Shown: positions 12,461 through 31,050, counted from the stretch's first letter. The stretch is 32,000 bases of DNA from Psychrobacter cryohalolentis K5 (GCF_000013905.1 NC_007969.1:1-32000); one strand, 5' to 3'. Made by a program: numbers and translations. Notes: generated by a model from the letters alone, not told the origin.

Positions 12461-13300
12461 CTATTTAGCCGACTTGTAGTAGTCCACCATCATAGTGCCT
12501 AACGTGCCGTTGTCATCGATAGTGACGATTCTGACAGTACCTGATTGTGCTGCGGTACTAGACTGCACTTGTCCGGCGTTACCTAAGACGACTTGGTTAT
12601 TTTTCGCCGCCATTGCTCCGTTACCGATAGCGATGCTATTTATGCCGCCAGCCATAGATTTATTGCCTAACGCTACCGAGTTTGCACCTTGTGCGGCTGC
12701 CGCTTCACCAACTGCGGTAGAGCGTACGCCACTAGCATTGGCTAGATGACCAAACGCTTGCGCGCGTTCAGCAGTGGCTTTAGACTGCCAACCGATGGAC
12801 GTTGAGCCTAGACCTGCGGCATTGGCTTCACCACCGACAGCGGTTGCGGAGTTTAGACCTGCATTGGCTTTATTACCGACAGCGACGGTATCGTTAGTGC
12901 CACCAGCCATGGCTGCTTCACCAACAGCGGTAGAGCGAACACCACTAGCATTGGCTAGATGACCAAAGGCTTGCGCGCGTTCAGCTGTGGCTTTGGATTG
13001 CCAACCGATAGACGTCGAGCCTAGACCTGCGGCATTGGCTTGACCACCGACAGCCGTAGCAGAATTAAGTCCTGCATTTGCCATATTACCGATAGCAACA
13101 GTATCATTGCTGCCGCCAGCAGTGGCTGTATTGCCAAGAGCGAGGGCAGTAGTGCTAGTAGTGTTTGCGGTGGTTTGTGCATTTGACGTTTGATAGTCAG
13201 CGCCTGTTGCCATAGTCGTGCATGAAGCGGTGGCAGCGATGGCTAAAGTAAGGGCACACGTTTTGAGTGCTAAGTTTGGTAAAAAGTCCATTTTCATCAT
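12461..13300 (-). CDS. YadA-head (Hep_Hag-type) repeat lipoprotein lacking an autotransporter anchor
   Basis: Degenerate NS(V/A)A(I/V/L)G-type head repeats run throughout (GANSVALGNKSMAGGINSIAIGNGAMA). The N-terminus MMKMDFLPNLALKTCALTLAIAATASC looks like a signal peptide ending in a Cys, a possible lipobox. The start is placed at the ATG preceded by AAGGAT (13300). There is no C-terminal beta-barrel anchor motif. Confidence 0.7.
   Translation of the reverse strand: MMKMDFLPNLALKTCALTLAIAATASCTTMATGADYQTSNAQTTANTTSTTALALGNTATAGGSNDTVAIGNMANAGLNSATAVGGQANAAGLGSTSIGWQSKATAERAQAFGHLANASGVRSTAVGEAAMAGGTNDTVAVGNKANAGLNSATAVGGEANAAGLGSTSIGWQSKATAERAQAFGHLANASGVRSTAVGEAAAAQGANSVALGNKSMAGGINSIAIGNGAMAAKNNQVVLGNAGQVQSSTAAQSGTVRIVTIDDNGTLGTMMVDYYKSAK
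12702..13127. repeat. Tandem 213-bp (71-codon) direct repeat inside the YadA-like gene
   Basis: Unit 1 is 12702..12914 and unit 2 is 12915..13127. The encoded 57-aa core ANAGLNSATAVGG[Q/E]ANAAGLGSTSIGWQSKATAERAQAFGHLANASGVRSTAVGEAA is identical except for one residue, while the DNA differs at many synonymous positions. Confidence 0.9.
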
Positions 13301-13539
13301 GCTAAATCCTTTTAGAAAAGCCATCTTGGCTTAGTAGGGGGTTTGGGTAAAAGCTGATAGATCACAATCCTTGCAATATCAGCGTACTCTGGCATAAATA
13401 ACTTGATCATATGTAGAGTCCGCAACATTAATGTAACACTAATTTTTAGCCATTATTCAAATAATGATGATGTTATATTTTTAAATATCATTTAAGCCGA
13501 CGGATGAACAGTTATAATATAAAGCAATCGTAAAGGGGA

Positions 13540-14724
13540 ATGCTGGTGTTGTACAACTTTGATGAAATAATAGACAGGTGTAACACGGGGTCGTTTAAAT
13601 GGCATTATACCGATGAGACAATTCCGCTGTGGGTCGCGGATATGGACTTTAAGGCCGCCCAGCCTATTTTAGCGGCGATTGAGCAAGTAACGCAGCATGG
13701 CATATTGGGTTACACCGTGCCGACCGAGCCGTTGTATCAAGCGATTATCGACTGGCATGGCAGTCGTTATGACTTGTGGCTGGATCAACAGGATATCCTG
13801 TTTTCTCCGGGTGTCGTGCCAAGTTTGGTGCTGATGATGAAGGTATTTACCGAGGTAGGGGATGCGGTACTCATCAATGACCCTATTTATACGCCTTTTA
13901 TGACCAAGGTTTTAGACAATGATCGTAAGCTGGTGACTTCTGCATTACAGGAGGTTGAGGGCCGATATCATCTAGATTTAGTCGATATCGAAGCCAAAAT
14001 TATCGAGCATAAAGTTAAGCTATATTTGTTCTGCAATCCGCATAATCCGGGCGGGCGGGTATGGACAGCGGATGAGCTTGAAGCGCTGCTTTTCATCTGC
14101 AAAAAGCACGATGTGGCGATTGTGAGTGATGAGATTCATCAAGATTTAACTTTGAGTGGGCATACATTCACGCCTTTTTTAACCCTAGCAAAAGACTATG
14201 AACACAAAGTAGTAAACCTAACCTCGATGACCAAAACCTTTAATATTGCCGGTATCAAAGGCTCGATGATATTTGCTAAAGACAGCGGATTACTGAGTAA
14301 AATTAACCAGCAGCAGCGTTTAAGTGACGAACATGAGCTAAATTTATTTGCTTATACAGCGATGCGTAGTGCTTATGAGCAAGGTGACGAGTGGTTGGCG
14401 CAGGCGCTGACTTATATTGAAGCCAATATTGACTTAACGCTACAGTTTTTAGAAGAGCATTTGCCTAAAATTAAGGTGATGCGTCCAGAAGCTTCGTATT
14501 TGATTTGGCTAGATTGTTCGGCATATGCGCAAGACGATCAAATGCTTTATGACAAATTGAGAGCTGCTAAGGTTGAGCTGAGTGCAGGGATTAAATATGG
14601 TGGTGAAGGCCATCTTAAAATGCGCCTCAATGTGGCGTGTCCTAAAGCGCTGCTGATAGAAGGGCTAAACCGTATGCAAACAGCATTAAATAGCGATGTT
14701 TTTAATATAGTCGATTCAATTTAA
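13540..14724 (+). CDS. PLP-dependent C-S lyase / aminotransferase class I-II (PatB/MalY type cystathionine beta-lyase)
   Basis: The 394 aa include NFDEIIDRCNTGSFKW (typical MalY/PatB N-terminus), LFCNPHNPGGRVW, the SDEIHQDL motif and SMTKTFNIAG (PLP lysine). GTG 13546 or TTG 13549 are alternative starts with better Shine-Dalgarno spacing. Confidence 0.85.
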   Translation: MLVLYNFDEIIDRCNTGSFKWHYTDETIPLWVADMDFKAAQPILAAIEQVTQHGILGYTVPTEPLYQAIIDWHGSRYDLWLDQQDILFSPGVVPSLVLMMKVFTEVGDAVLINDPIYTPFMTKVLDNDRKLVTSALQEVEGRYHLDLVDIEAKIIEHKVKLYLFCNPHNPGGRVWTADELEALLFICKKHDVAIVSDEIHQDLTLSGHTFTPFLTLAKDYEHKVVNLTSMTKTFNIAGIKGSMIFAKDSGLLSKINQQQRLSDEHELNLFAYTAMRSAYEQGDEWLAQALTYIEANIDLTLQFLEEHLPKIKVMRPEASYLIWLDCSAYAQDDQMLYDKLRAAKVELSAGIKYGGEGHLKMRLNVACPKALLIEGLNRMQTALNSDVFNIVDSI

Positions 14725-14734
14725 AAAGAATACG

Positions 14735-14812
14735 GTGTTGCTGGGATAAATTTTGCGAAGCTTCTGGAGTGCGAAGTGCACAGCAAGCGAGGAAAGTTTA
14801 TCCCAGCATAAC
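14735..14812 (-). repeat. Hairpin-forming intergenic repeat element, copy A (inverted orientation)
   Basis: TGCTGGGATAAATTTT (14739..14754) pairs with AAAGTTTATCCCAGCA (14793..14808). The reverse complement aligns with copies B, C and D through the core CTGG-AT-AA-TTT...GCTTGCTGTGC...CGCAAAA-T-ATCCCAG. Confidence 0.85.
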
Positions 14813-14852
14813 GCTATTTTTAACATGCCTCTTTTATATCGAACTGACTGTA

Positions 14853-16421
14853 TTACTTAGCTGGATAACCCGTAATATCTTGAATGCTTTGATATAAAGG
14901 CTTTAAGCGCTCATACATTTTGAGATAAACCTCATTATAAAGGCGTTTGTAGAGCTGGACATTGGCTTCGATAGGTAAGAATCCATCACCCAAATGGGTC
15001 ATGGCCTGAGTTGCGGTTAAATGGTCGGGATAAACGCCAAGTCCCACCGCACAATTGATAGCAGCGCCTAAGCCTGAGGCTTCATAAGTATGCGGTCGAT
15101 AAGCGGGCATACCGAAGATATCTGCCGTCAGTTGCATCGCTGAGTCACTTTGGGAACCACCGCCAGACACACGCAGATGTTTAATGGCTTTGCCTGTACG
15201 CTTCTCAATGGTATCAAAACCAAGCTTTAGCTCATAAGCCAGCCCTTCCAAAATAGCGCGGTAGACATGCGCTCGCGTATGTACATCACCAAAACCAATA
15301 AGCGCACCTTTGCCTTCAAGACCCGGATGACGAACACCGGGCGACCAGTACGGCTGCATCATCAAACCCATACAGCCTGCTGGAATGTCTTTGACTGCCT
15401 TATCGAGTAGTTTTTCAGTATCAACACCCTGCGTTTTTGCCAGTTGCTCTTCATACTGGGCAAATTGCTCCTTAAACCAGCTGACCATCCAAAAGCCGCG
15501 ATAAATCATATACTCATGATTGTAGTAATTTGGCGCGGCGGCGGTATAAGCGGGCATGTGCTTGAGTATCTCAATATAATGGCTCGACGTGGTATTAATA
15601 GTCGCAGTAGTGCCAAAGCTTAAGCAGGCGGTATCGGCGGCAAGTCCGGCGGAACCCAACGCTTCGCACGCTTTATCACTGGCGGCAGCAATCATTGGCG
15701 TGCCTTCAAGAATACCAGTAGCGGCGGCAGCGTGAGCGGTAATATGACCAAGTAGCTGCCCAGGTGGCATAAGTTTGGGCATTTGCTCTAGTCGGCAACT
15801 AAACAGTCGCCATTTGATGTTGTTTGGCTTAAACCATGCTTGCGCTTTGTAATCGTAAGGCAGATAGCCTAAGGCATGACCAGTAGAGTCGGCAATCTCG
15901 CCTGTGAGCTGATAGGTGAGGTACGCGGATAAATTGACATAATGAGTGGTTTTTGCCCACATTTCTGGTTCATGATGCGCAAGCCAATTACAGCGTGCTT
16001 TTTGCTGCGCCTCTTGTACCAGCTCGCCCATACCGATGACTTTGGTGAGTGGACCTAGAAAGCCTATGTCATTGTTCTCGCCGCGACGCAAATCCATCCA
16101 CACAATGGCTGGACGTAGCGGTTGTTTATCCTTGTCCAAACATATCATGGTATAGCGCTGGGTGGCGAGACTGACGCCGGCAATTTGCGCTGGGCTAATA
16201 TCGCAGGTTTGCCACAACTGCTGACAGGCCTCGCTTAATTTTTGCCAATAGTAGTCAGCATGTTGCTCGGCAAAACTAGGCTGCTCAGAAAAATACGGCT
16301 CGATAGGGACGCGTGCTTTGGCTATCTCGGTGCCGAATTGATCAAAGATAAGCGCTCTCACGCTTTGGGTGCCATTGTCGATAGCTAAGAAATAAATAGG
16401 CGCATCAAAGTTGTCGGTCAT
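14853..16421 (-). CDS. FGGY-family carbohydrate/polyol kinase (substrate unknown)
   Basis: FLAIDNGTQSVRALIFD is the FGGY N-terminal motif and VSGGGSQSDSAMQLTADIFGMP the C-terminal motif. The second ATG (16421) has proper spacing from the AAGG Shine-Dalgarno. The track starts at 16427. Confidence 0.85.
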   Translation of the reverse strand: MTDNFDAPIYFLAIDNGTQSVRALIFDQFGTEIAKARVPIEPYFSEQPSFAEQHADYYWQKLSEACQQLWQTCDISPAQIAGVSLATQRYTMICLDKDKQPLRPAIVWMDLRRGENNDIGFLGPLTKVIGMGELVQEAQQKARCNWLAHHEPEMWAKTTHYVNLSAYLTYQLTGEIADSTGHALGYLPYDYKAQAWFKPNNIKWRLFSCRLEQMPKLMPPGQLLGHITAHAAAATGILEGTPMIAAASDKACEALGSAGLAADTACLSFGTTATINTTSSHYIEILKHMPAYTAAAPNYYNHEYMIYRGFWMVSWFKEQFAQYEEQLAKTQGVDTEKLLDKAVKDIPAGCMGLMMQPYWSPGVRHPGLEGKGALIGFGDVHTRAHVYRAILEGLAYELKLGFDTIEKRTGKAIKHLRVSGGGSQSDSAMQLTADIFGMPAYRPHTYEASGLGAAINCAVGLGVYPDHLTATQAMTHLGDGFLPIEANVQLYKRLYNEVYLKMYERLKPLYQSIQDITGYPAK

Positions 16422-16473
16422 AGTCATCCTTAACTATGTGGGAATATAGATTGAAGCTAACTTAGAGTATAAA

Positions 16474-16547
16474 GCGGAACGGGTATTAATTTTTCTAGCT
16501 TGCTGTGCCTACGCCGATAGAGGCTAAAAAAATCATCCCAGTTCCGT
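16474..16547 (+). repeat. Hairpin-forming intergenic repeat element, copy B
   Basis: Outer arms CGGAAC (16475..16480) and GTTCCG (16541..16546) flank GGGTATTAATTTTT...TGCTGTGCCTACGCCGATAGAGGCT...AAAAAAATCATCCCAG. It sits between the GlpD-like stop and the kinase start. Confidence 0.85.
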
Positions 16548-16600
16548 CATATCTTTTCAACACTGAGTTTAGTATAGATAAATTAGGATATAAAAAAGCG

Positions 16601-18256
16601 CTAAGCCACAGGCAGATAATAGTAGCGTTGCCATAAGGCTTGATAACGGTCAGCCTCTTGCTGCCATTTTTGCTCATCCCAGCCTAGCTCCTGCTGACAT
16701 ATTTGCTTGACTCGCTGACTGATTAGCGGGGTCATCGCACCATTGGGCAATATAAGACCCAAGCGCGTGCGTCGTAGTAATAAATCATCCAAATGAATAA
16801 CCTGCTCATAGCGAGCAGCAAAGCGAATCTCCGCCCAAATGGTATTGCTATCGGTCACATAAGCCAAGTCATCGTCATGAGCCAGCTCTAGCAAAGTATC
16901 GAGCTGTAGGCCATAAAAACCTTTTAAGCGCTGTTGTAATGGTAGCGGCAGGGCAGTAAATTTAGGATTGGTTGAGGTTTGCTTGCTAAAAACTTGGCTG
17001 CTATATAACACATTATCTTGAGTAGCTGATTCATCGAGTTCGAGCACCTTTTGACAGACTTTTAGTACATCAAGGGCGATTAGGCGAAAGGTGGTTAATT
17101 TGCCACCGCTTACAGTGACCAGATTATTATCCAACCAGACGCTATGATCGCGTTTTTCCTTACTAGGACTGACGCGCTTACCATCATTGCCATCAGAAAT
17201 CAGTGGTCGCACGCCTGCCCATGAGCTGATGACATCCTTGCGGCTAATATCTACATCATCAAAAAGATCGTTGGTCGCGGTCAAAAGATAGTCCACCTCA
17301 GCATTGGTAATGCCGACTTCTGTATCATCTAAGGGTGGATGGTCCAAATCAGTAGTACCAAGAACGGTTCGGTTCTCCCACGGAAAGACAAAGATTGCTC
17401 TTTTATCGACAGGATGCAAAAAGGTATACGCTTGATTGAGCGGTAGGCGCTCTTGACTAACCACCAAATGACTGCCACGCGATGGACGAATTTGCTTATG
17501 AAAGGTTTGTTCCGTTTGCTGACTGGCTTGCATCCGTAACGTATCTGCCCAAGCGCCCGTGGCACTGACCACGACTTTGGCCTGAACGTCGTGAGTATGG
17601 GTGCTATGTTGAGGCGAGGTATCTTTTAGAGTAGCCCCCACCACTAAGCCTTGTTCAGTGGTTATGAGTGATTCTGCTTTAAGATAGTTAATCGCATGCG
17701 CACCATCATGAATAGCTTCGTCCAATACCCGCATCACGAGCCGTGAGTCATCGGTCACAGCATCACTAAATTGACTGGCACCCAAAAACTTATCTTGTTT
17801 AATATGAGGGTTAAGGCTAAGAAAGGCGTCTTTTTCAAAGTACTTAAAGTAGTGCTTACCCGCGAGCTTATCATATACCCTAAGCAGATTATTAAATATC
17901 CATGGCGGTGGAAACTTGCCTTTGTAATGAGGCATGACATAGTGCATCTCATTAACGAGACCACTCGCTTCATTCAGCATGCGTTCACGCTCGCGTACGC
18001 TGTGCAGTGTCGTCTTGAAATCGCCCGAGGCAATGTAACGTAGCCCGCCATGTACCATTTTGCTTGAGCGGCTGGAGGTGCCCCAAGCGAAGTCTTTTTG
18101 TTCAATTAATAGTACTGCTAAGCCGCGCCTTGCTGCTTCGCGAGCAATACCAGCACCAGTGATCCCGCCACCGATGATGAGCATATCCCATGGTTCAGAA
18201 CGAGACAGTGGTGCTAATGCTTGCTGGCGTTGTTGATATTGATTAGCTCGGTTCAT
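16601..18256 (-). CDS. FAD-dependent glycerol-3-phosphate dehydrogenase/oxidase family protein (GlpD-like)
   Basis: Dinucleotide-binding motif DMLIIGGGITGAGIAREAARRG, then FAWGTSSRSSKMVHGGLRY, and GGKLTTFRL later. Length is 551 aa. Confidence 0.88.
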   Translation of the reverse strand: MNRANQYQQRQQALAPLSRSEPWDMLIIGGGITGAGIAREAARRGLAVLLIEQKDFAWGTSSRSSKMVHGGLRYIASGDFKTTLHSVRERERMLNEASGLVNEMHYVMPHYKGKFPPPWIFNNLLRVYDKLAGKHYFKYFEKDAFLSLNPHIKQDKFLGASQFSDAVTDDSRLVMRVLDEAIHDGAHAINYLKAESLITTEQGLVVGATLKDTSPQHSTHTHDVQAKVVVSATGAWADTLRMQASQQTEQTFHKQIRPSRGSHLVVSQERLPLNQAYTFLHPVDKRAIFVFPWENRTVLGTTDLDHPPLDDTEVGITNAEVDYLLTATNDLFDDVDISRKDVISSWAGVRPLISDGNDGKRVSPSKEKRDHSVWLDNNLVTVSGGKLTTFRLIALDVLKVCQKVLELDESATQDNVLYSSQVFSKQTSTNPKFTALPLPLQQRLKGFYGLQLDTLLELAHDDDLAYVTDSNTIWAEIRFAARYEQVIHLDDLLLRRTRLGLILPNGAMTPLISQRVKQICQQELGWDEQKWQQEADRYQALWQRYYYLPVA

Positions 18257-18358
18257 AGACGACTCATTTTAATTGTTATTTAATTTCAACTATGTATGTT
18301 ATCCAAATAATCTAATTCATAGTCGTTACTAAATAAAATAAATACACTATATTATAAT

Positions 18359-18434
18359 GCGCGACTGGTATTAATTTTCCTTGCGTGCTGTGCCTACGCC
18401 GACAGAGGCTGCGAAAAATCAATGCCAGCCGCGC
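18359..18434 (+). repeat. Hairpin-forming intergenic repeat element, copy C
   Basis: GCGCGACTGGTATTAATTTT...GTGCTGTGCCTACGCCGACAGAGGCTGCGAAAAATCAATGCCAGCCGCGC. It sits between the flavoenzyme stop and the GlpD-like start. Confidence 0.88.
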
Positions 18435-18486
18435 TGTAACGCTCTTAAACCAAACTAACTATAAACAAGGTTTTTGAGTAAAGTTA

Positions 18487-20238
18487 TTATTCAATCAAAA
18501 CACCCGGATTCATACGCTGCTCAGGGTCCAGACTTTTAAGCATATCACGGGTAACCTGAATACCTAGCTTACCCTTTTCAGCAGTGAGGTAAGGGACATG
18601 GTCACGGCCGACACCATGCTGGTGCGATATTGTCGCTTTGCCATTTGCCAGACTTGAGCTGGCAGCATGCTTGATTTTTTGCCAGCGACTTAAGGTACTG
18701 GTGTGATCTCTAGCCGCTCTAAAGAAGTAGGTGGTATAAAGGCTAGCACCTTGCTTATACACATGTGAGATATGCGTAAATGCCATCACGGCTTCGCCTT
18801 CGTCTGCCAGTGCAGTTTGCACCGCTGCTTGCATCTGCTGCATTTGCTCGTCGATATTATGCCAATTGGTCGCGGTCTCAAAGGTATCCACCATGATGCC
18901 TTTCTCCCACAAAGTACCGCGCAAATATGGAAATTTAAAACGCCCATGTGACCATATCTTACCCATCAGATTGGCAAGCTTGCCACTGATACCCCCATGC
19001 TGCTTTAACAGATTTTTAAACTGCGTCAGTGCCAGCGCATTCTGTGCTTTATCACCTGATAGGCCATAAGTCAGCATGACTTTTTGTGAACCTAATCCGC
19101 GCGCTTTTAGATAGGTGTTGATTGCCAAAAATTGACTGGGCGTCGTGCCTAAATGTAGGTGAGCATCAGTCTCGACCGCATTGCTCAGGCGTAGCATCGA
19201 TAGGCGGATGTTTTTTTGTACCGCTTGTCTGAGCACTTCTTTACCCGCCTCCCAATTGGGTAAAAATACCACTTTGAATAGCTCTTCTTCCGGTTGTGAC
19301 TGCACGCGCATTTTGACTTCGGTAAAAATACCGGCGCGGCCTTCAGTACCCATCATCATTTCACGCAGATCAGGCCCTGCTGCTGACGCTGGAATATCAG
19401 CGATATTGAGTACACCTTGCGGCGTGACCAACGTACCACCAGCAAACATCTGCTCGATACGTCCGTAACCCAATGACTGCTGACCGCTAGAGCGTGCTGC
19501 AATCCAGCCGCCAAGCGTCGATAGCTCCCACGACTGCGGATAATGTCCTAAACGGTAACCGTGGGCATTTAATTGTGCCTCGACTGCTGGACCTTGTGTA
19601 CCTGCGCCAAAAGTAGCAATTTGGCTCTCTATATCCAAGTCAATCAGCTGATCCATCCTACTCATAGCAATAGTCAATATGGGGCGTGAGCCTTTTTGCG
19701 GGTTGATATGACCAGCGACTGAGGTACCGCCGCCAAAAGGAATGACGATCAGGTCGTACTCGCTTGCTAGTTTTAATAAGGTTTCGACATCAGCGGTTGA
19801 TTGCGGATGCGCCACGCCATCAGGAAAGACTTTAAAGTCGCCACCATGCATGGCTATCCAATCTGGGAAGCTTTGACCACGGGCGTGTCTGAGTCTTACC
19901 TCGTTATCGACAGATACAGTATCAAGCTCAATCATAGCAGCAGGTAAGCGTGATTTTGGAACGGTTTTGAGCACCTTTTGTAAGCTGACAGAAGACAGTT
20001 TTTTAGTTTTACCGATATGAGATTTGATCAGTTTTGCGCCATGTGGCGAGACTTTTTTATTGATACTGACATTGCCCCAACCATTCCAGCGCGTCTGTTC
20101 TATAGGTGTGTTGGCAGGTGTAGTGACGGACGTATCTATTTTTGAGAGCGTATCTAAACTGGTATTATCAATAGGAGAGGTCGTTGAGATAGAGGCAGTT
20201 TTAGACGTTTTACGCATAAAGGATTTAATTTTGCTCAT
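18487..20238 (-). CDS. FAD-linked oxidase (VAO/PCMH fold), alkyl-dihydroxyacetonephosphate-synthase-like
   Basis: The 583 aa include the RWNGWGN motif near the N-terminus, RLRHARGQSFPDW, FPDGVAHPQS..VE.LLKLA....L.VIPFGGGTSVAGH (FAD-binding PCMH domain), and HQHGVGRDH near the C-terminus. From memory this pattern is characteristic of AGPS-like rather than GlcD-like members. The N-terminal ~45 aa is Ser/Thr-rich. Confidence 0.75.
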   Translation of the reverse strand: MSKIKSFMRKTSKTASISTTSPIDNTSLDTLSKIDTSVTTPANTPIEQTRWNGWGNVSINKKVSPHGAKLIKSHIGKTKKLSSVSLQKVLKTVPKSRLPAAMIELDTVSVDNEVRLRHARGQSFPDWIAMHGGDFKVFPDGVAHPQSTADVETLLKLASEYDLIVIPFGGGTSVAGHINPQKGSRPILTIAMSRMDQLIDLDIESQIATFGAGTQGPAVEAQLNAHGYRLGHYPQSWELSTLGGWIAARSSGQQSLGYGRIEQMFAGGTLVTPQGVLNIADIPASAAGPDLREMMMGTEGRAGIFTEVKMRVQSQPEEELFKVVFLPNWEAGKEVLRQAVQKNIRLSMLRLSNAVETDAHLHLGTTPSQFLAINTYLKARGLGSQKVMLTYGLSGDKAQNALALTQFKNLLKQHGGISGKLANLMGKIWSHGRFKFPYLRGTLWEKGIMVDTFETATNWHNIDEQMQQMQAAVQTALADEGEAVMAFTHISHVYKQGASLYTTYFFRAARDHTSTLSRWQKIKHAASSSLANGKATISHQHGVGRDHVPYLTAEKGKLGIQVTRDMLKSLDPEQRMNPGVLIE

Positions 20239-20494: not shown

Positions 20495-22090
20495 ATGACA
20501 ACTGCTGCCAACGTTCCTACTATTAAAGAAGATCGCATCTTAATTCTCGATTTTGGCTCGCAGTACAGCCAGCTTATCGCCCGCCGTGTCCGTGATTCAG
20601 GCGTATTCTGTGAGATGTTCCCTTATGATATCGACACTCAGCGCATCATCGATTTTGGCGCAAAAGGCGTTATCTTATCTGGTGGTCCTGAGAGCGTCCA
20701 CGCAGATGACAGCCCACGCATCAACGATGCTGTATTTGATATAGGCGTACCAGTATTAGGTATCTGCTATGGTATGCAAGCGATGGCAGAGCGTTTCGGT
20801 GGTAAAGTTCACGCCAGTGATATCCATGAATTTGGCGCAGCAACCATCAATATCGATGGCAAATCAACGCTGACTGATGGTATCGAAGACGCAGCAGCGA
20901 AGCTAAATGTCTGGATGAGTCATGGCGATAAAGTAGTCGACGCCCCACAAGGTTTCGATATCGTCGCCAGTACGCCAAGCTGCCCGATTGCGATCATGGC
21001 AGATGATTCGCGCCATTATTATGGGCTACAGTTCCATCCTGAAGTGACGCATACCGCACAAGGTCAGGCATTGCTAGGACGTTTTGTCCATCAAATCTGT
21101 GACTGCGCGGGTAGCTGGACGCCTGATAACATCATCGATATGCGTATCGAGCAACTCAAAAAGCAAATCGGTGATAAGCAAGTATTGCTAGGTCTTTCAG
21201 GTGGTGTAGACAGCTCAGTTGTCGCAGCATTATTGCATAAAGCCATCGGCGATCAATTAACGTGCGTGTTTGTCGATACTGGTCTGCTTCGTCTGCATGA
21301 AGGCGATCAAGTGATGCAAATTTTTGCAGAAAACATGGGCGTAAAAGTCATTCGTGTTGATGCCGAAGAGTTATTCTTAACGGCATTGGCTGGCGAGTCT
21401 GATCCAGAAGCCAAGCGTAAAATCATCGGTAAAACCTTTATCGATGTATTTGCCAATAGTGCTCGTGAAGTCAGCGAGCAGAGCGATGGTAAAGTCATCG
21501 AATTCTTAGCGCAAGGTACGATTTATCCAGACGTGATTGAATCTGCCAAGTCGCATCAAGGTAAAGCGCACGTCATTAAGAGTCATCATAACGTTGGTGG
21601 TTTGCCAGATGATTTAGCGTTTGAATTGGTTGAGCCGTTACGTGATTTGTTCAAAGATGAAGTACGTAAATTGGGTATTACCCTAGGTTTGCCTGCCAAA
21701 ATGATTAACCGTCATCCGTTCCCAGGACCGGGTTTGGGCGTGCGTATCTTGGGCAAAGTGACCAAAGAGTTTGCTGATATCCTACGTTCTGCTGATGCTA
21801 TCTTTATGGAAGAGCTTGAGCGTTCAGGTTGGTATGAGAAAACCGCGCAAGCATTTGCGGTATTCCAACCAATCAAATCGGTTGGTGTGGTCGGTGATGG
21901 TCGCCGCTATGCGTGGGTGATTGCGCTACGTGCCGTTGAGACTGTTGACTTTATGACCGCACGCTTTGCGCATCTGCCGTATGATTTGATTGAAACGGTA
22001 TCGAATCGAATCATGAACGAAATCGCTGAAGTTTCACGCGTGACTTATGATGTGTCGAGCAAGCCACCTGCGACGATTGAGTGGGAATAA
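20495..22090 (+). CDS. guaA: GMP synthase (glutamine-hydrolysing)
   Basis: The 531 aa include [26 protein letters not shown] (GATase catalytic Cys), [11 protein letters not shown] (PP-loop), and the C-terminal TIEWE. Confidence 0.98.
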
Positions 22091-22168: not shown

Positions 22169-23017
22169 TTACTCACTAAATTCTGCTTCGATAGCAGCAA
22201 CTTTGTTTATTAACTGATTATTAAATTCTAAATGATTTAAAGAGTAGTGAGCTTTTCGATGACAGGTAGGGCACAATGCGATGACGTTTTGAGGTAAGTC
22301 CGCACCACCATCTGCCAACCTAGTTAGATGATGGACTTCGAGATAAGGTCCAGATTTAGTTTCAAATGGAGCTATCTCATTACATCCCTCGCATATACCA
22401 TTAGCTCTTTTTTTGGCATACAGTTTAATTGCTGTACTACGGTTTTGAATAGATTGAATTTTTTCTTGAGTGCTTGCGTGGGTTGGTGTTGAACTTAAGG
22501 CAATCTCTCGTAGTTGCTGTAATGACTTACCTTTACTAGGCTTAGTGACATAAACGGCTTTAGGGGCTTCAACTAGTTTAGAAGTCAGAGTTTGAGCTTT
22601 ATCAATATTTTTAGTATTAACTATATCTAGATGAAAAACGATAGCGTCACGAAGCTCGCTATTTCTATCTGGCCGTTCTTCAATATGATGAAAAATGTAA
22701 TTGCAATACCCTAAAAATCGTACAAATCCTCGTGATGTTGATTCGAAAAGTAGGATTTCTTTATTGTTTCTTTGATGGTCATGAATTGCCAAATTACCTT
22801 TGGTCATTTTCATGTCACCTTCTTGCCCTTCACCAGTATATTTAAACGTGCCGTTAGGATCAAAATCATCAATATAACCATACTCACCACCAGCATCGCC
22901 GGTGAAAATAAATATATATGGATGCTCGGCAGGCGTTGCTATACCACCATATTGTTGCCCTTTATATATACCGTGTATATCAGAACGACGGTTATAAATT
23001 TCTCCTATTTCAAACAC
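22169..23017 (-). CDS. SRA(YDG)-like domain + HNH nuclease; predicted type IV modification-dependent restriction endonuclease
   Basis: The C-terminus is CEGCN...EVHHLTRLADGGADLPQNVIALCPTCHRKAH, a Zn-ribbon HNH (beta-beta-alpha-Me). The N-terminus GGIATPAEHPYIFIFTGDAGGEYGYIDDFDPNGTFKYTGEGQEGDMKMTKGNLAI resembles the SRA pattern (..SGGYeDD.D.G..f.YTG.GG....Q....N.AL). It uses a GTG start at 23017 with a strong AAGGAAG Shine-Dalgarno 5 nt upstream. The gene is visibly AT-rich compared with guaA. Confidence 0.75.
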   Translation of the reverse strand: MFEIGEIYNRRSDIHGIYKGQQYGGIATPAEHPYIFIFTGDAGGEYGYIDDFDPNGTFKYTGEGQEGDMKMTKGNLAIHDHQRNNKEILLFESTSRGFVRFLGYCNYIFHHIEERPDRNSELRDAIVFHLDIVNTKNIDKAQTLTSKLVEAPKAVYVTKPSKGKSLQQLREIALSSTPTHASTQEKIQSIQNRSTAIKLYAKKRANGICEGCNEIAPFETKSGPYLEVHHLTRLADGGADLPQNVIALCPTCHRKAHYSLNHLEFNNQLINKVAAIEAEFSE

Positions 23018-28345: not shown

Positions 28346-28604
28346 TGTTTATCCTTTTGCGCTATGCAGGGCTGACTAAACAAAAGCGCTTATCATAAAC
28401 CAGAAAGCATCTACCGTCTTTATTAGAGCTGTAACCCCTCGGCAAACGCTATGATTATTTGCCTGTCATTTTTTTAGGCGATTGTCGAGCAATTTATAGG
28501 GGAAGGGTGGTTATTATAAGTTCTTAAACTTAAAATACTCTTGTGCTAGGATGATGCTTTTTGCTTCTTACTTCATTTTTCTAGTTTTCAAAAAGGATAT
28601 TTCG

Positions 28605-29552
28605 ATGCTATTAAAACGCCTAGGCCTTGCCACTTTGTTAAGCTTTTCAGTCGTTGGTTGTACCACAGCGCCCAATACCTTGGCGATAAATACCACCCAA
28701 AAGATTATTCAGTATGAACGCTCAAAATCAGACCTTACGACTCAGTCATTTACGTTAAGCTCTGGCGATAAAATAGTCTATGCAGAAAACGGTAATGTCG
28801 CGGGCGAGCCTTTATTATTGGTTCATGGCTTTGGCGGTAATAAAGACAACTTTACCCGTATCGCTCGGCAGTTAGAGAACTATAATCTGATCATTCCTGA
28901 TTTGCTCGGCTTTGGTGACTCTAGTAAACCGATGGCGGCTGACTATCACTCGGAGGCGCAAGCGACGCGCTTACACGAGCTACTGCAAGCTAAAGGCTTG
29001 GCATCTAGCATTCATGTCGGTGGCAACTCAATGGGTGGCGCTATCAGTGTTGCTTATGCTGCGAAGTATCCTAAAGAAGTCAAAAGTCTGTGGCTAATAG
29101 ATAGTGCGGGCTTTTGGTCAGCGGGTGTGCCGAAATCCTTAGAAAGTGCAACTCTCGAGAACAATCCGCTATTGGTCGATAAGAAGGAAGACTTTTATGC
29201 TATGTATGACTTTGTTATGTCTAAGCCGCCTTATATTCCTAAGTCTGTAAAAGCCGTATTCGCGCAAGAGCGTATCGCTAATAAAGCATTAGAATCCAAA
29301 ATACTCGCGCAAATAGTTGAAGACAATGTTGAGCAGCGTGCCAAGGTTATCACTGAATATAATATTCCAACACTAGTCGTTTGGGGTGAGGAGGATAAGG
29401 TCATCAAGCCTGAAACCGTGACGCTAATAAAAGAAATCATCCCACAATCACAAGTGATTACGATGCCAAAAATCGGTCATGTACCGATGATAGAAGCGGT
29501 GAAAGATACGGCGAATGATTATAAAGCGTTTCGTGAAGGGTTAAAGAACTAG
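28605..29552 (+). CDS. lip1: Secreted/lipoprotein alpha/beta-hydrolase lipase, Psychrobacter Lip1-like
   Basis: MLLKRLGLATLLSFSVVGC is a signal peptide plus lipobox. The oxyanion motif is HGFGG, the nucleophile elbow is GNSMGG, and the C-terminal catalytic His is in IGHVPM. I recall the sequence as very similar to the cold-active lipase 1 of Psychrobacter immobilis. The start is placed at ATG 28605, which has an AAGGAT Shine-Dalgarno. Confidence 0.85.
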   Translation: MLLKRLGLATLLSFSVVGCTTAPNTLAINTTQKIIQYERSKSDLTTQSFTLSSGDKIVYAENGNVAGEPLLLVHGFGGNKDNFTRIARQLENYNLIIPDLLGFGDSSKPMAADYHSEAQATRLHELLQAKGLASSIHVGGNSMGGAISVAYAAKYPKEVKSLWLIDSAGFWSAGVPKSLESATLENNPLLVDKKEDFYAMYDFVMSKPPYIPKSVKAVFAQERIANKALESKILAQIVEDNVEQRAKVITEYNIPTLVVWGEEDKVIKPETVTLIKEIIPQSQVITMPKIGHVPMIEAVKDTANDYKAFREGLKN

Positions 29553-29649
29553 TCATTTACATATGATATTTTAAGGCGTAAATGATCCAACGTTTGATTA
29601 GATATGAGCTGTAGTCAGTCCTAAATAAAAGAAATACAAACATTATAAG

Positions 29650-29725
29650 GTGCTACTGGTATCAATTTTTGTTGCTTACTGTGCTTACGCAGACAGAGGC
29701 TGCGAATAATTAATCCCAGTAGCAC
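29650..29725 (+). repeat. Hairpin-forming intergenic repeat element, copy D
   Basis: GTGCTACTGGTATCAATTTTT...CTGTGCTTACGCAGACAGAGGCTGCGAATAATTAATCCCAGTAGCAC. The outer 10 bp are perfectly complementary. It lies between the convergent lipase and nitronate monooxygenase genes. Confidence 0.88.
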
Positions 29726-29792
29726 TGTATTCTTTTAAAACTGTATCTACTCTATTGTAGGCTGAGTTAAAAATCAGCCTACGTCGATCAAA

Positions 29793-30848
29793 CTAACTCT
29801 CTCTCTCTCTCTCTCTTACCAATCGCTCTAGCAGTTCAACCGTGCGCTCTTGTCTAACCAAAGCGACACCTTGTCCTGCCCATAAAGATTGATGTTCGGC
29901 ATCGCGGTTTTTGGTTGCATGGGCACGCAAAAATTTGGTCATCGCATTTAATTGTGGGTAAGGCGGTAGCTCATGCGCGCTCTCAAATTGAGCAAAATCA
30001 TGCAAATAATCATTTAATAAACCACGAGCCTGTTTCCCTGAGAATAATCTGGTTAAGCGCGTCTCAGAGCTGCGCTTATCTTGGCTGGCATCGAGTAACG
30101 CTTGCTTATAAATGTCATTGATAGCGCATTTATCTGTGGTCAAAAATGCCGTCCCGATTTGCGCCAGCTCAGCACCAGCCGTTTGAACTGCTTTGATGTC
30201 CTGTCCGTTCATAATGCCACCAGCCGCGATTAAAGGAATATCGTTGCAGGCACGCGTTTGACTTATTAGCGTCAATAATCCCAATGGATCGTTTTCACTT
30301 TGCGGCAACCAACCACCGCGATGCCCACCCGCTTCGACCCCTTGCACGCATACCGCATCTGCACCAATCTCTGCCCATGCTTTTGCTTCCAATGGATGAT
30401 TGGCAGTACCGACGACCCGTGTGCCTAGACCTTGCAAACGCTGCACCTGCTCAGCGCTGATAATGCCAAAGGTAAAACTGGCGACAGGAACGGGATTGTC
30501 ATAGAGCACTTGTAGCTGCTCTGCAAAGCTTAGCGCTGGGTGCTTCGGCAGAGTAAATTCGATATTTTTCTCTTGATAGTACTTGCTTAGCCAAGTAGGT
30601 ACTTCGCTATCCAAAGCACTAGATTCATGCTCTGATAACACCATCAGATTGACCATAAAAGGATGATCGGTGAGCGATTTAATGGTGTTTATTTCACTAT
30701 TTAAAACGTCTGGCGCCGTCATGCCCGCTCCCAATGAACCCAGTCCACCAAAGTTACTGACAGTCGCTGCCAGCTCAGGGGTGGTTGCTCCTGCCATCGG
30801 CGCTTGAACAATAGGATATGTCAAATTAAGGGTGTTCAGTAAGGTCAT
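29793..30848 (-). CDS. Nitronate monooxygenase (NMO / 2-nitropropane dioxygenase family)
   Basis: MTLLNTLNLTYPIVQAPMAGATTPELAATVSNFGGLGSLGAG is the canonical NMO N-terminus. GGHRGG and IAAGGI blocks are also present, and an AAGGAAG Shine-Dalgarno precedes the start. Confidence 0.9.
   Translation of the reverse strand: MTLLNTLNLTYPIVQAPMAGATTPELAATVSNFGGLGSLGAGMTAPDVLNSEINTIKSLTDHPFMVNLMVLSEHESSALDSEVPTWLSKYYQEKNIEFTLPKHPALSFAEQLQVLYDNPVPVASFTFGIISAEQVQRLQGLGTRVVGTANHPLEAKAWAEIGADAVCVQGVEAGGHRGGWLPQSENDPLGLLTLISQTRACNDIPLIAAGGIMNGQDIKAVQTAGAELAQIGTAFLTTDKCAINDIYKQALLDASQDKRSSETRLTRLFSGKQARGLLNDYLHDFAQFESAHELPPYPQLNAMTKFLRAHATKNRDAEHQSLWAGQGVALVRQERTVELLERLVRERERES
29797..29816. repeat. (CT)10 dinucleotide microsatellite within the last codons of the NMO gene
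   Basis: CTCTCTCTCTCTCTCTCTCT was read directly. On the coding strand it encodes the terminal ...RERERES*. Confidence 0.95.
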
Positions 30849-30960
30849 GACAGGCTTCCTTGTTATTTTATGAGGAGTTTTGCATGACTCACTTTAGCAA
30901 AGCTGGATGGCGTGCGTGTTAGATATTGTTTATTTAGTTGCTGAATAGGAAGGTTGGTTT

Positions 30961-31036
30961 TTGACTACAAAGTTGTAGTTAAAAAATTTGACTACGATTT
31001 TGTAGTTAAGTATTATGACTATAAATTTGTAGTCAA
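30961..31036 (+). promoter_or_regulatory. Three 27-bp-phased palindromic operators overlapping a near-consensus sigma70 promoter
   Basis: ACTACAA-ag-TTGTAGT at 30964..30979, ACTACGA-tt-TTGTAGT at 30991..31006, ACTATAA-at-TTGTAGT at 31018..31033. The promoter is TTGACT (30988..30993), a 17-nt spacer, then TATTAT (31011..31016). An AAGGA Shine-Dalgarno lies at 31039 and the ATG at 31051. Confidence 0.7.
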
Positions 31037-31050
31037 CTAAGGATAAAAAG

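Follow-up and report, generated by a model that had tools for sequence, protein, structure and literature searches.

Hairpin repeats between the genes of a Psychrobacter cryohalolentis operon are very probably copies of an IS630-type MITE

Introduction

Why should each gene of a three-gene operon be followed by a copy of the same hairpin? The question is raised by a 32,000-nt stretch of Psychrobacter cryohalolentis K5 (GCF_000013905.1 NC_007969.1:1-32000), referred to here in its entirety as the window. An earlier note on this DNA had located four hairpin copies, of which A, B, and C were each placed behind one gene of a cluster and D elsewhere; all four are present at those positions, and the arrangement is true of all three minus-strand genes. 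The host cluster, annotated with Pfam, comprises the following:

14853-20238, minus strand, host cluster of FAD-linked oxidase, GlpD-like FAD oxidoreductase, and FGGY kinase
20238-18487, minus strand, FAD-linked oxidase gene
18256-16601, minus strand, GlpD-like gene
16427-14853, minus strand, FGGY kinase gene

From sequence comparison across the genus, the four hairpins are very probably copies of a non-autonomous transposable element, an IS630-type MITE, that is abundant throughout Psychrobacter.

Results and Discussion

Four copies of a longer repeat

The repeat unit had been described as ~75 to 80 bp. The true repeat is about twice as long, since conservation begins at TATAGTC and finishes at GACTATA, and only the middle of the element had been caught. 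The window copies measure 132 to 147 bp each:

14706-14852, minus strand, copy A, 147 bp, full-length, divergent apex
16445-16576, plus strand, copy B, 132 bp, 5' arm ~15 nt shorter (E=1e-23)
18318-18463, plus strand, copy C, 146 bp (E=1.8e-36)
29610-29754, plus strand, copy D, 145 bp (E=4.9e-34)

A common core is indeed present, CTGTGCYTACGCMGAYAGAGGCT being found three times in the window (in B, C, and D) where ~0.01 chance matches are expected. Copy A is inverted and carries a divergent apex, CTGTGCACTTCGCACTCCAGAAGCT, of a type also seen in two other sequences (L036 and L080); an HMM built from other copies recognizes it as full-length (nhmmer E=3.6e-21, HMM positions 2 to 145). It lies between convergent aminotransferase and FGGY-kinase genes, supplies the last six codons and the stop codon of the open reading frame (ORF) at 13540-14724, and directly adjoins the kinase stop codon (14853-14855). 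Copy B occupies the spacer from the GlpD-like stop to the FGGY-kinase start, and its mRNA-sense sequence is reverse-complementary to the model orientation. Copy C, whose 5' flanking TA is mutated to CA, fills the spacer from the FAD-linked oxidase stop to the GlpD-like start, and copy D sits between convergent alpha/beta-hydrolase (28551-29552, plus strand) and nitronate-monooxygenase-like (29793-30848, minus strand) genes. No ORF of at least 80 amino acids was found inside the window copies.

Across the family, copies are 132 to 161 bp long, with clusters at 138 and 146 bp, and the edges of conservation at TATAGTC and GACTATA are sharp in 122 copies. These ends form terminal inverted repeats, whose helix (alignment columns 1 to 12 with 234 to 245) is 78.7% paired in 102 copies. 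The element consists of a left arm of ~40 nt and a right arm of ~29 nt, both similar to the ends of IS630-family insertion sequences (ISs), and between them a ~75-bp hairpin, which is the part that had been described before. Three parts make up this hairpin: the covarying stem (NNNNNNCTGG / CCAGNNNNNN), a stem rich in A/T, and an apex that is asymmetric and bordered by conserved motifs. Copy D illustrates the layout:

29610-29649, plus strand, IS630-like 5' arm TGTAGTCAGTCCTAAATAAAAGAAATACAAACATTATAAG, corresponding to the IS left end up to the TATAA(C/G) box
29650-29659, plus strand, 5' strand of the outer stem GTGCTACTGG (equivalents: B 16474-16483; C 18359-18368; A 14735-14744)
29669-29706, plus strand, central asymmetric apex with conserved flanks TTGCTTGCTGT and ACAGAGGCTGC
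29716-29725, plus strand, 3' strand of the outer stem CCAGTAGCAC (equivalents: B 16538-16547; C 18425-18434; A 14803-14812)
29726-29754, plus strand, IS630-like 3' arm TGTATTCTTTTAAAACTGTATCTACTCTA, its terminus degenerate in this copy

The apex tip between the flanking motifs is variable (GCCTACGCAG and variants). Core conservation appears inflated because most copies were picked by a core-pattern search, which is partly controlled by copies not so picked, and even among these the two apex flanks are at least 90% conserved.

An intergenic family found throughout Psychrobacter

A search with the core pattern, as the earlier note had proposed, matched at least 120 stretches, and among the matches listed all titles name a Psychrobacter species or metagenome-assembled genome (MAG), bar one MAG labeled only Pseudomonadales. 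Dozens of Psychrobacter genomes contributed the 928 kb in which an HMM census recovered 185 non-overlapping copies, including 146 that are full length. The element is almost always intergenic: of 149 copies, 145 overlap ORFs by 30 nt at most or not at all. Rfam gave no match at gathering thresholds and seven weak hits (E<=5), none of which overlaps a copy. The sequence had not been recognized as a named element, and in agreement with this we found neither an Rfam entry nor a paper naming it. The repeat family is real and apparently unnamed, and the sort of element is familiar.

Insertion at TA in previously empty sites

We observe presence and absence of the element at orthologous sites. The gene order of the host cluster is the same in relatives and on chromosome CP022043.2, and in element-free relatives the copy B junction is 38 to 39 nt long (L126, L127, and L128) and the copy C junction 80 nt (L126, L128, and L146). 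Orthologues bordering the empty 80-nt and 38-nt spacers are at 87 to 89% protein identity; in further relatives, copies occupy these junctions, and they do so in one orientation or the other. The same operon spacers have been entered independently and in both orientations.

Comparison of filled with empty sites shows that insertion takes place at TA, which is duplicated in the process. The filled site gaTA[tagttg...aacta]TAtt in L111 corresponds to the empty gaTAtt in L050, and gcTA[tagtcg...gacta]TAgcc in L108 to gcTAgcc in L064; the copy B junction compared with that of L126 is consistent with the same TA duplication. Target preference is weakly palindromic, (A/C)TA(G/T). The earlier note had held target-site duplications to be absent, but it examined the wrong place: direct TA duplications flank the true ends.

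The note had also proposed that the element enters the loops of pre-existing hairpins, with an affinity to REP/RAYT or IS200/IS605 systems, in which a short palindrome is moved by a Y1 HUH transposase or a hairpin loop is targeted. Hairpin shape and an intergenic, post-gene location are all that recommend such an origin, and we regard it as highly improbable. The variable stems belong to the element itself, lying 40 to 50 nt inside its true ends, and the check for a plain terminator hairpin at element-free sites revealed instead a plain TA in an unstructured spacer. No hairpin was found in the short empty spacers of L126 and L128, and the TA of L050 is outside a terminator hairpin, ~20 nt downstream of it. 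Hairpin targeting like that of IS200/IS605 or IS1397 is rejected on these empty sites. REP/REPIN sequences are palindromes of ~20 to 40 bp whose 5' tetranucleotide is conserved and which leave no target duplication. On both size and target duplication we reject membership in REP/RAYT, the present element being ~145 bp long with terminal inverted repeats and a flanking TA duplication. Its termini and TA duplication fit an IS630-family DDE IS instead. A Pfam scan of 10 window ORFs found no transposase, and the sole transposase found adjoining these ends elsewhere is of the DDE IS630 type.

An IS630-family IS as candidate mobilizer

That transposase is encoded outside the window, by a 905-bp, TA-flanked IS630-family IS of Psychrobacter (L120:1544-2448). 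Its 278-aa protein matches Pfam DDE_3 (8e-28) and HTH_Tnp_IS630 (4e-17) and scores 124 bits against NCBIfam transpos_IS630 (cutoff, 100 bits). The 5' arm of copy D is identical to the left end of this IS at 28 of 37 bases, and a subfamily consensus aligned with the same end scores 22, a value reached by 0 of 500 shuffles (maximum, 19). At the right end, the 3' arm of a better-preserved copy (L009) is identical at 24 of 29 bases, and again none of 500 shuffles scored as high. Similar IS copies are present in L103, L020, L058, and L099, and in L020 the IS has inserted within a MITE, at TA. We found no similarity between the central hairpin or apex flanks and the interior of the IS.

The link to this IS draws on ends that are only ~75 to 83% similar and on a TA target common to both. 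An IS630-family transposase probably helps the element move; it would mobilize the element in trans, by cut-and-paste. The repeats are small and non-coding, bear terminal inverted repeats and IS-like ends, duplicate TA, and are dispersed and polymorphic, as expected of an IS630/Tc1-mariner-type MITE.

Covariation of the stems

As had been claimed, the conserved arms fold into a long hairpin, which we recover for every copy and on both strands (z = -2.2 to -4.6 versus shuffles). The outer stems of the window copies are GTGTTGCTGG/CCAGCATAAC in A (14735-14744 / 14803-14812), GCGGAACGGG/CCAGTTCCGT in B, GCGCGACTGG/CCAGCCGCGC in C, and GTGCTACTGG/CCAGTAGCAC in D. They had been considered copy-specific yet internally complementary. 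Complementarity stands, but specificity does not, as the same versions recur at unrelated loci in other genomes, that of copy D, for example, in L038. Covariation analysis of this stem, which the note had asked for, gave strong support, with double changes in 9 of 10 pairs. In the outer stem (helix 5) 85.6% of cells are paired; over the stems, 83% of alignment cells are paired versus 36 to 47% when partners are slid, and 15 distinct versions of the 10-bp stem are perfectly paired.

We know of nothing in IS630/Tc1-mariner transposition that demands an internal hairpin, so the transposase alone leaves the stem covariation unexplained, and selection acting on RNA or DNA structure, one of the two explanations offered originally, stays live. 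In a descriptive comparison, stem versions found at more than one locus average 1.1 mismatches versus 2.0 for those seen once, and this better pairing in multi-copy versions suggests that stem pairing is maintained in proliferating lineages. Stem versions would be signatures of sublineages, or master copies, in which both strands changed together. Under one option, only copies keeping the foldback would go on spreading or persisting; under the other, one arm would be corrected against its partner by template switching in the quasi-palindrome. In either case resident copies may afterwards decay through unpaired mutations.

Taken further, the second option would make the stems a mutational by-product that arises without selection, as template-switching copies changes from arm to arm. 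Mutation by quasi-palindrome correction is established, and compensatory changes run along the entire hairpin, including the supposedly conserved CTGG/CCAG, for which CTAG/CTAG, CTGT/ACAG, TTGG/CCAA, and CGGG/CCCG are seen. In addition, rare copies in which the core is flipped or the left arm is present twice (L112 and L089) indicate that the arms do interact. However, such a process should erase asymmetry, yet the ~10-nt 5' bulge with the TATAA box and the apex motifs are kept in at least 90% of copies, and arm exchange is observed in only 2 of 102 aligned copies. We therefore view a pure by-product as possible, though doubtful.

Relation to known elements

RUP of Streptococcus pneumoniae (RUP/IS630-Spn1) is similar in being a non-coding intergenic sequence of ~100 to 150 bp with terminal inverted repeats and TA insertion. 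Its ends resemble those of a resident IS630-family IS, the proposed mobilizer in trans (PMC2229807), and the evidence there is of the same type as ours, namely, end similarity and TA target. RUP differs in phylum and sequence, and the Psychrobacter element is longer and, unlike RUP, has a large IS-unrelated central hairpin, conserved apex motifs, stem covariation, and several subfamilies. No further signatures of structure or function are reported for RUP (PMC2229807).

Correia elements (CREE/NEMIS) of Neisseria resemble the Psychrobacter element in duplicating TA, in their long terminal inverted repeats, and in a size of 100 to 155 bp. Their intergenic copies also run into the hundreds, are frequently co-transcribed, and form long hairpins. 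The first six terminal bases of Correia are TATAGT, as in the Psychrobacter element. Correia belongs to another genus and has a core and a terminal repeat of ~26 bp that are specific to Neisseria, and the two sequences appear to differ past the first few bases. We know of no matching transposase for Correia; for the Psychrobacter element, an IS630-family candidate was identified. Documented Correia effects run through promoters, the binding of IHF, and cleavage by RNase III (PMC10969869, PMC2649163).

ERIC/IRU sequences of enterobacteria are likewise imperfect palindromes (~127 bp) in transcribed intergenic regions, though from a different bacterial group and with no sequence relation. Evidence of structure-preserving evolution exists for ERIC, and we know of no parent IS identified for it. 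Its terminal repeats are short, at 7 bp (PMC2229807), and in Yersinia it has orientation-dependent mRNA effects via RNase E (PMC10969869). Finally, MITEAba12 comes from the same bacterial family as Psychrobacter (Moraxellaceae, in Acinetobacter and Moraxella) and is tied to a resident IS by matching terminal repeats (PMC6382973). However, it is 113 bp long, generates 9-bp target duplications, is tied to ISAba12, and is unrelated in sequence; it is not reported from Psychrobacter, the genus being absent from the text of that paper (PMC6382973).

Possible effects at the RNA level

Relative to the mRNA, 62 site clusters are in the opposite orientation and 31 in the same sense (p=0.0017), and this 2:1 bias hints at RNA-level effects of the copies, the sole hint in favor of the mRNA stabilizers or attenuators suggested in the earlier note. 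In addition, copies lie between convergent genes more often than between divergent ones (32 versus 14). Mismatches on the model strand are A.C in 75 cases and G.U in 36, which marks the complementary strand as the wobble-tolerant one. The average fold of that strand is better by 2.3 kcal/mol, and this advantage is 3.1 kcal/mol where it is the one transcribed versus 0.2 elsewhere (p=0.035; a weak and subfamily-confounded result). T-rich tracts, identified by eye, follow the GATAC/GTATC stem on both strands (GTTTTTAT on one and CATTTTATTT on the other).

Together with the strong covariation and the conservation of asymmetric internal-loop motifs between variable paired stems, these features would also be expected of a structured RNA selected by the host, such as an intra-operon attenuator, bidirectional terminator, RNase III/E site, or mRNA stabilizer, with locus-level selection on folding keeping the stems and mobility being incidental; the MITEs Correia and ERIC act on RNA likewise (PMC10969869). 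We nonetheless consider this unlikely. Close relatives lack the element at the same junctions, and the roughly twofold mismatches of single-locus stem versions look more like decay at the site than like maintenance there. Simple scans of the copies flagged neither canonical terminators nor strong sigma-70 promoters, and T-tract content and quality do not differ with genomic context.

A co-transcribed copy should form a long RNA hairpin, which could alter termination, processing, or stability depending on its orientation, and this fits the 2:1 bias. The documented effects of Correia elements make them a functional analogue for what the Psychrobacter copies may do.

A longer repeat unit around the hairpins

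The four hairpin-bearing stretches of the window, copies A to D, are present where the earlier note placed them, and in repeat detection B, C, and D fall into a single family of direct repeats, to which A is the inverted partner. The window holds three occurrences of a 23-nt core, where chance alone would give 0.01. The long hairpins described earlier form from either strand in every copy and are more stable than shuffled sequence (z = -2.2 to -4.6), and the 6 to 10 bp adjoining CTGG/CCAG vary among copies and are complementary inside each copy. The unit of 75 to 80 bp proposed at that stage was too short: once the flanks are included in an alignment of the four copies, conservation is seen to extend well beyond the hairpin, and across 122 aligned copies it sets in abruptly at TATAGTC and drops after GACTATA. 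The repeat so bounded, hereafter the MITE, consists of arms around the central ~75-bp hairpin, with lengths clustering at 138 and 146 bp. The three genes of the minus-strand operon are indeed followed, in order, by copies C, B, and A, and copy D is located between two convergent genes.

Operon genes and full MITE extents in the window
20238-18487, minus strand, FAD-linked oxidase, operon gene preceding copy C
18318-18463, plus strand, copy C
18256-16601, minus strand, GlpD-like FAD oxidoreductase, operon gene preceding copy B
16445-16576, plus strand, copy B
16427-14853, minus strand, FGGY kinase, operon gene preceding copy A
14706-14852, minus strand, copy A
29610-29754, plus strand, copy D

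Copy A, an apex variant shared with loci L036 and L080 (L-numbers denote loci compared with the window, including metagenomic relatives), directly adjoins the kinase stop codon (14853-14855) on one side. On the other it overlaps the 3' end of an aminotransferase ORF (13540-14724), whose last six codons (N-I-V-D-S-I) and TAA stop (14704-14724) lie almost wholly within the MITE terminus. Several other copies among the loci likewise overlap ORF ends, by at most 18 nt.

Elsewhere in the window, repeat detection finds three tandem 27-bp units (30960-31040), each with a TTGACTACAAAGTTGTAGTCAA-like palindrome, just upstream of a nitronate-monooxygenase-like gene (start 30848, minus strand); their arrangement resembles that of iterons or of a reiterated operator. 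Within a YadA-head-domain ORF (12461-13324), a repeat-expanded adhesin-like gene, a 213-bp unit is repeated in tandem (12699-13124; two units, 86% identical), and an HNH endonuclease domain is encoded by a 282-aa ORF (22169-23017) immediately downstream of, and convergent with, guaA (20495-22090).

Abundance and variants of the family

Further copies occur beyond the window, with at least 120 stretches matched when one genome per species is scanned with the core pattern CTGTGCNTACGCNGANAGAGGCT. Among the matches listed, the titles are all Psychrobacter species or MAGs, bar one MAG labelled only Pseudomonadales, and the species include P. immobilis, P. glacincola, P. pacificensis, P. aquaticus, P. 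namhaensis, P. glaciei, P. okhotskensis, P. celer, P. coccoides, P. maritimus, P. luti, and P. vallis. An HMM built from the alignment recovers 185 non-overlapping copies, 146 of them full length, from 928 kb of core-selected loci; about 50 of these copies do not contain the exact pattern used in the scan, so the family extends beyond it. The density in the window is 4 copies per 32 kb. Partial matches (62-72% of MITE length, 73-74% identity) are also seen in unannotated stretches of the Psychrobacter plasmids NZ_CP029792.1 and NZ_CP100399.1/.2 and of NZ_CP078030.1 from Acinetobacter variabilis, and the plasmid records examined carry no annotation of the MITE. With one of these plasmids coming from Acinetobacter, relatives of the MITE may exist beyond Psychrobacter.

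A length variant of about 160 bp (L090:4473-4632, L035:7140-7300, L045:962-1119, L072:7784-7944, L015:1315-1475) carries an extra A/T-rich insertion of 15 to 20 nt on the 3' side of the central stem, e.g., AACCTATGTTTTAAAAAAAG. Rearranged copies include one whose core is flipped relative to its arms (L112:1953-2097), one with two left arms from different subfamilies (L089:4398-4545), and one whose 5' half comes from one subfamily and whose 3' half comes from a second (L022:5649-5784), which accounts for its mismatched stem. These arrangements indicate recombination between or within copies. We considered whether half-length HMM matches in L105, L001, L059, and L084 were ends of longer autonomous elements and rejected this, as they are internal deletions, truncations, or nested copies.

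At L026 (~620-800) the core hairpin lacks the usual TATAGTC termini and is enclosed by other inverted flanks, CTAAC...GTTAG; this may represent either a separate subfamily or an ancient copy that has degenerated. Upstream of this hairpin are an ATG and a good ribosome-binding site, and the ORF continues through it. Together with one frame reading ...CLRRQRLRK, this led us to consider a peptide-coding core, a reading dropped because the arms contain stop codons and the copies are intergenic.

Insertion at TA

Two filled/empty pairs among the loci can be read base by base, and a third candidate, L081 versus L097, is too divergent for reading.

Filled and empty sites
L050, empty, ...atcattgaTAttagtagg...
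L111, filled, ...atcatggaTA[tagttg...aacta]TAttagcagg...
L064, empty, ...gattgcTAgccaaaaag...
L108, filled, ...ggtcgcTA[tagtcg...gacta]TAgccaaaaag...

The MITE is thus mobile and duplicates a TA upon insertion. The earlier note was right that target-site duplications are direct repeats, but not that they are absent here: the TA is duplicated at the true ends, 40 to 50 nt outside the stems it considered. Flanking bases lean weakly toward a palindrome, (A/C)TA(G/T).

Metagenomic relatives of the GlpD-like protein permit the same comparison at the operon junctions on either side of its gene. In L126, L127, and L128 (87-89% identity) the upstream spacer is a plain 80 nt and the downstream one a plain 38-39 nt, and in L146 (83% identity) they are 80 and 51 nt long; the window spacers at these two junctions measure 230 and 173 nt. 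Other relatives carry the MITE at one or both junctions, some oppositely oriented to the window, being reversed downstream in L125, L131, L137, L151, and L164 and upstream in L134. Insertion at these junctions has thus taken place independently, more than once. An element that inserts into the loops of pre-existing hairpins, as had been suggested, would leave hairpins at empty sites; the empty operon spacers of the relatives contain none, which rules this explanation out.

Relationship to an IS630-family element

A search of the loci for longer elements bounded by MITE-type ends recovers a complete, TA-flanked, 905-bp IS630-family IS (L120:1544-2448). Its 278-aa product matches Pfam DDE_3 (8e-28) and HTH_Tnp_IS630 (4e-17) and, with 124 bits, exceeds the 100-bit cutoff of the NCBIfam model for IS630 family transposases. 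The left end of the IS, TATAGTCAATCTTAGATAAAACCGATACAATGTTTATAAC, matches the MITE 5' arm as far as the TATAA(C/G) box; it agrees with copy D of the window at 28 of 37 bases and scores 22 against the subfamily consensus (shuffle maximum, 19). Its right end, ...TGTTCCAGTTTTATTGTGGATTGACTATA, matches the MITE 3' arm in L009 at 24 of 29 positions, a value reached in 0 of 500 shuffles. A full-length MITE lies on the same contig 63 bp away (L120:2512-2655). Other copies or fragments of the IS are an internally deleted one in L103 and those at the contig ends of L020, L058, and L099. In L020 (~150-420), where the contig ends within the IS, an IS630-type right end adjoins a MITE truncated at ...GCTA|CTGG, so that the IS apparently inserted into the MITE at a TA inside the covarying stem.

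Compared with the IS630-type interiors of L120 and L103, the central ~75 bp of the MITE shows no more similarity than shuffled sequence does. Matching ends and an unrelated center make the MITE a set of IS630-type ends around an unrelated hairpin module, and from these end similarities we infer that it is mobilized by an IS630-family transposase. A phage origin was also considered and rejected, the apex-flank motif having 0 matches in viral contigs. The element is very probably an IS630-type, TA-duplicating MITE; its TA duplication and IS630-like ends replace the REP/RAYT-like nature proposed previously, which was wrong.

Complementarity of the stems

Covariation was assessed over the full consensus hairpin in 102 non-redundant copies (alignment A2). 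Paired cells amount to 83.1%, versus 36-47% with partners slid by 1 to 3 columns, the tested structure being the consensus fold, which biases this percentage upward. The covariation score is 0.200, versus at most 0.066 in the slid controls, and 0 of 500 column shuffles reach the observed pairing and covariation values. RNAalifold, run independently on the 102-copy alignment, retains only the 8 strongest outer-stem pairs, which is why the full hairpin was tested with the consensus-fold structure. The strongest helix comprises CTGG/CCAG and the outer stem beside it that the earlier note had singled out; there, double changes at 9 of 10 pairs (one pair being CG 49, GC 14, AU 11, and UA 3) support the proposed covariation. 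CTGG/CCAG covaries too, its variants including CTAG/CTAG, CTGT/ACAG, TTGG/CCAA, CGGG/CCCG, and TGGC/GCCA.

The 146 full-length copies fall into 111 stem versions, of which 15 pair perfectly over 10 bp. Identical versions recur at unrelated loci, so the stems are not truly copy specific, as had been thought. Versions present at two or more loci have on average 1.1 mismatches versus 2.0 in single-locus versions, as a descriptive comparison only. Our reading is that pairing is maintained in proliferating lineages and then decays in resident copies. It may be kept because it is needed for spread, through better host tolerance, or by arm-to-arm correction in the quasi-palindrome. The last of these, acting purely, is hard to reconcile with two conserved asymmetric features: a ~10-nt 5' bulge with a TATAA box, and the apex flanks TTGCTTGCTGT and ACAGAGGCTGC, whose conservation is 90% or more even outside the pattern-selected copies, with a variable tip between them.

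Orientation and possible effects on RNA

Copies are almost always intergenic, with 145 of 149 showing no ORF overlap of more than 30 nt, and 32 lie between convergent genes versus 14 between divergent genes. Between co-directional genes, the model strand (the reference orientation of the alignment and HMM) is opposite to the mRNA in 68 copies versus the same in 33 (P = 6e-4), or 62 versus 31 when orthologous sites are collapsed (P = 0.0017). Copies B and C have the favored, opposite orientation, and A has the sense orientation relative to the kinase mRNA. Because a TA target offers the transposase no orientation cue, the bias looks like filtering after insertion. Mismatches on the model strand are A.C in 75 cases versus G.U in 36, and as RNA the complementary strand folds better by 2.3 kcal/mol on average (92 copies versus 53), an advantage of 3.1 kcal/mol if transcribed as that strand versus 0.2 otherwise (P = 0.035). 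With subfamily as a confounder, the orientation bias, A.C excess, and RNA folding are suggestive only.

A 2007 terminator survey marked out Psychrobacter arcticus and P. cryohalolentis as unusual among non-Firmicutes, predicting intrinsic terminators after 65-69% of their genes in robust tail-to-tail regions (PMC1852404). Scans for terminators and strong promoters call none in the copies of the window, and across the operon region and copy D such scans give no more matches than shuffled sequence. Longer spacers for same-sense copies would have suggested placement between transcription units rather than inside operons; spacers do not differ by orientation (P = 0.92), nor does T-tract content or decay differ by genomic context. 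The negative scans, equal spacers, and equal T-tracts count against a simple terminator role.

It is a rather unlikely proposition that the central ~75-bp hairpin, instead of being passive filler, acts as a structured, strand-specific functional module inside the IS630-type MITE. One possible form is an RNA element, read mainly as the model-strand complement, that modulates termination, processing, or stability of operon transcripts, possibly with host dependence on the hairpin at some loci. The other is a cis-acting hairpin that the MITE needs for spread, a requirement that, if true, would be novel among IS630/Tc1-mariner-type elements. The covarying stems, asymmetric apex motifs, 2:1 bias, and wobble asymmetry may be compatible with either form.

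Comparison with known elements and significance

The MITE shares a TA target and IS630-like ends with the pneumococcal RUP/IS630-Spn1 system, in which RUP was tied to IS630-Spn1 by the same end-similarity logic (PMC2229807), and a long co-transcribed foldback with Correia and ERIC (PMC2229807, PMC10969869, PMC2649163); it probably belongs to none of these families. MITEAba12 of the Moraxellaceae is unrelated, having 9-bp duplications and being tied to ISAba12, and the paper on it nowhere mentions Psychrobacter (PMC6382973). The copies have no Rfam match at gathering thresholds or at E<=5, and the genus is not mentioned in a 2024 review of prokaryotic MITEs. We found no named Psychrobacter MITE or repeat in the literature, of which our coverage was incomplete, so that an earlier description is possible.

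Of the earlier interpretation, the family and its structural covariation are real; insertion into existing hairpins and a REP/RAYT-like nature do not stand. The element reveals neither a new kind of mobile element nor a new regulatory principle. As a dense, unannotated intergenic repeat of Psychrobacter genomes it has annotation value, and a name for it would help account for assembly breaks, unusual 3' ends of genes, and operon spacers of variable length. Why long MITE foldback stems stay complementary is a standing question, and this set of 146 full-length copies, with its many subfamilies and filled/empty sites, provides clean data on how such stems are maintained. The 2:1 orientation bias, in turn, is a testable lead on RNA-level effects in the operons of cold-adapted bacteria.
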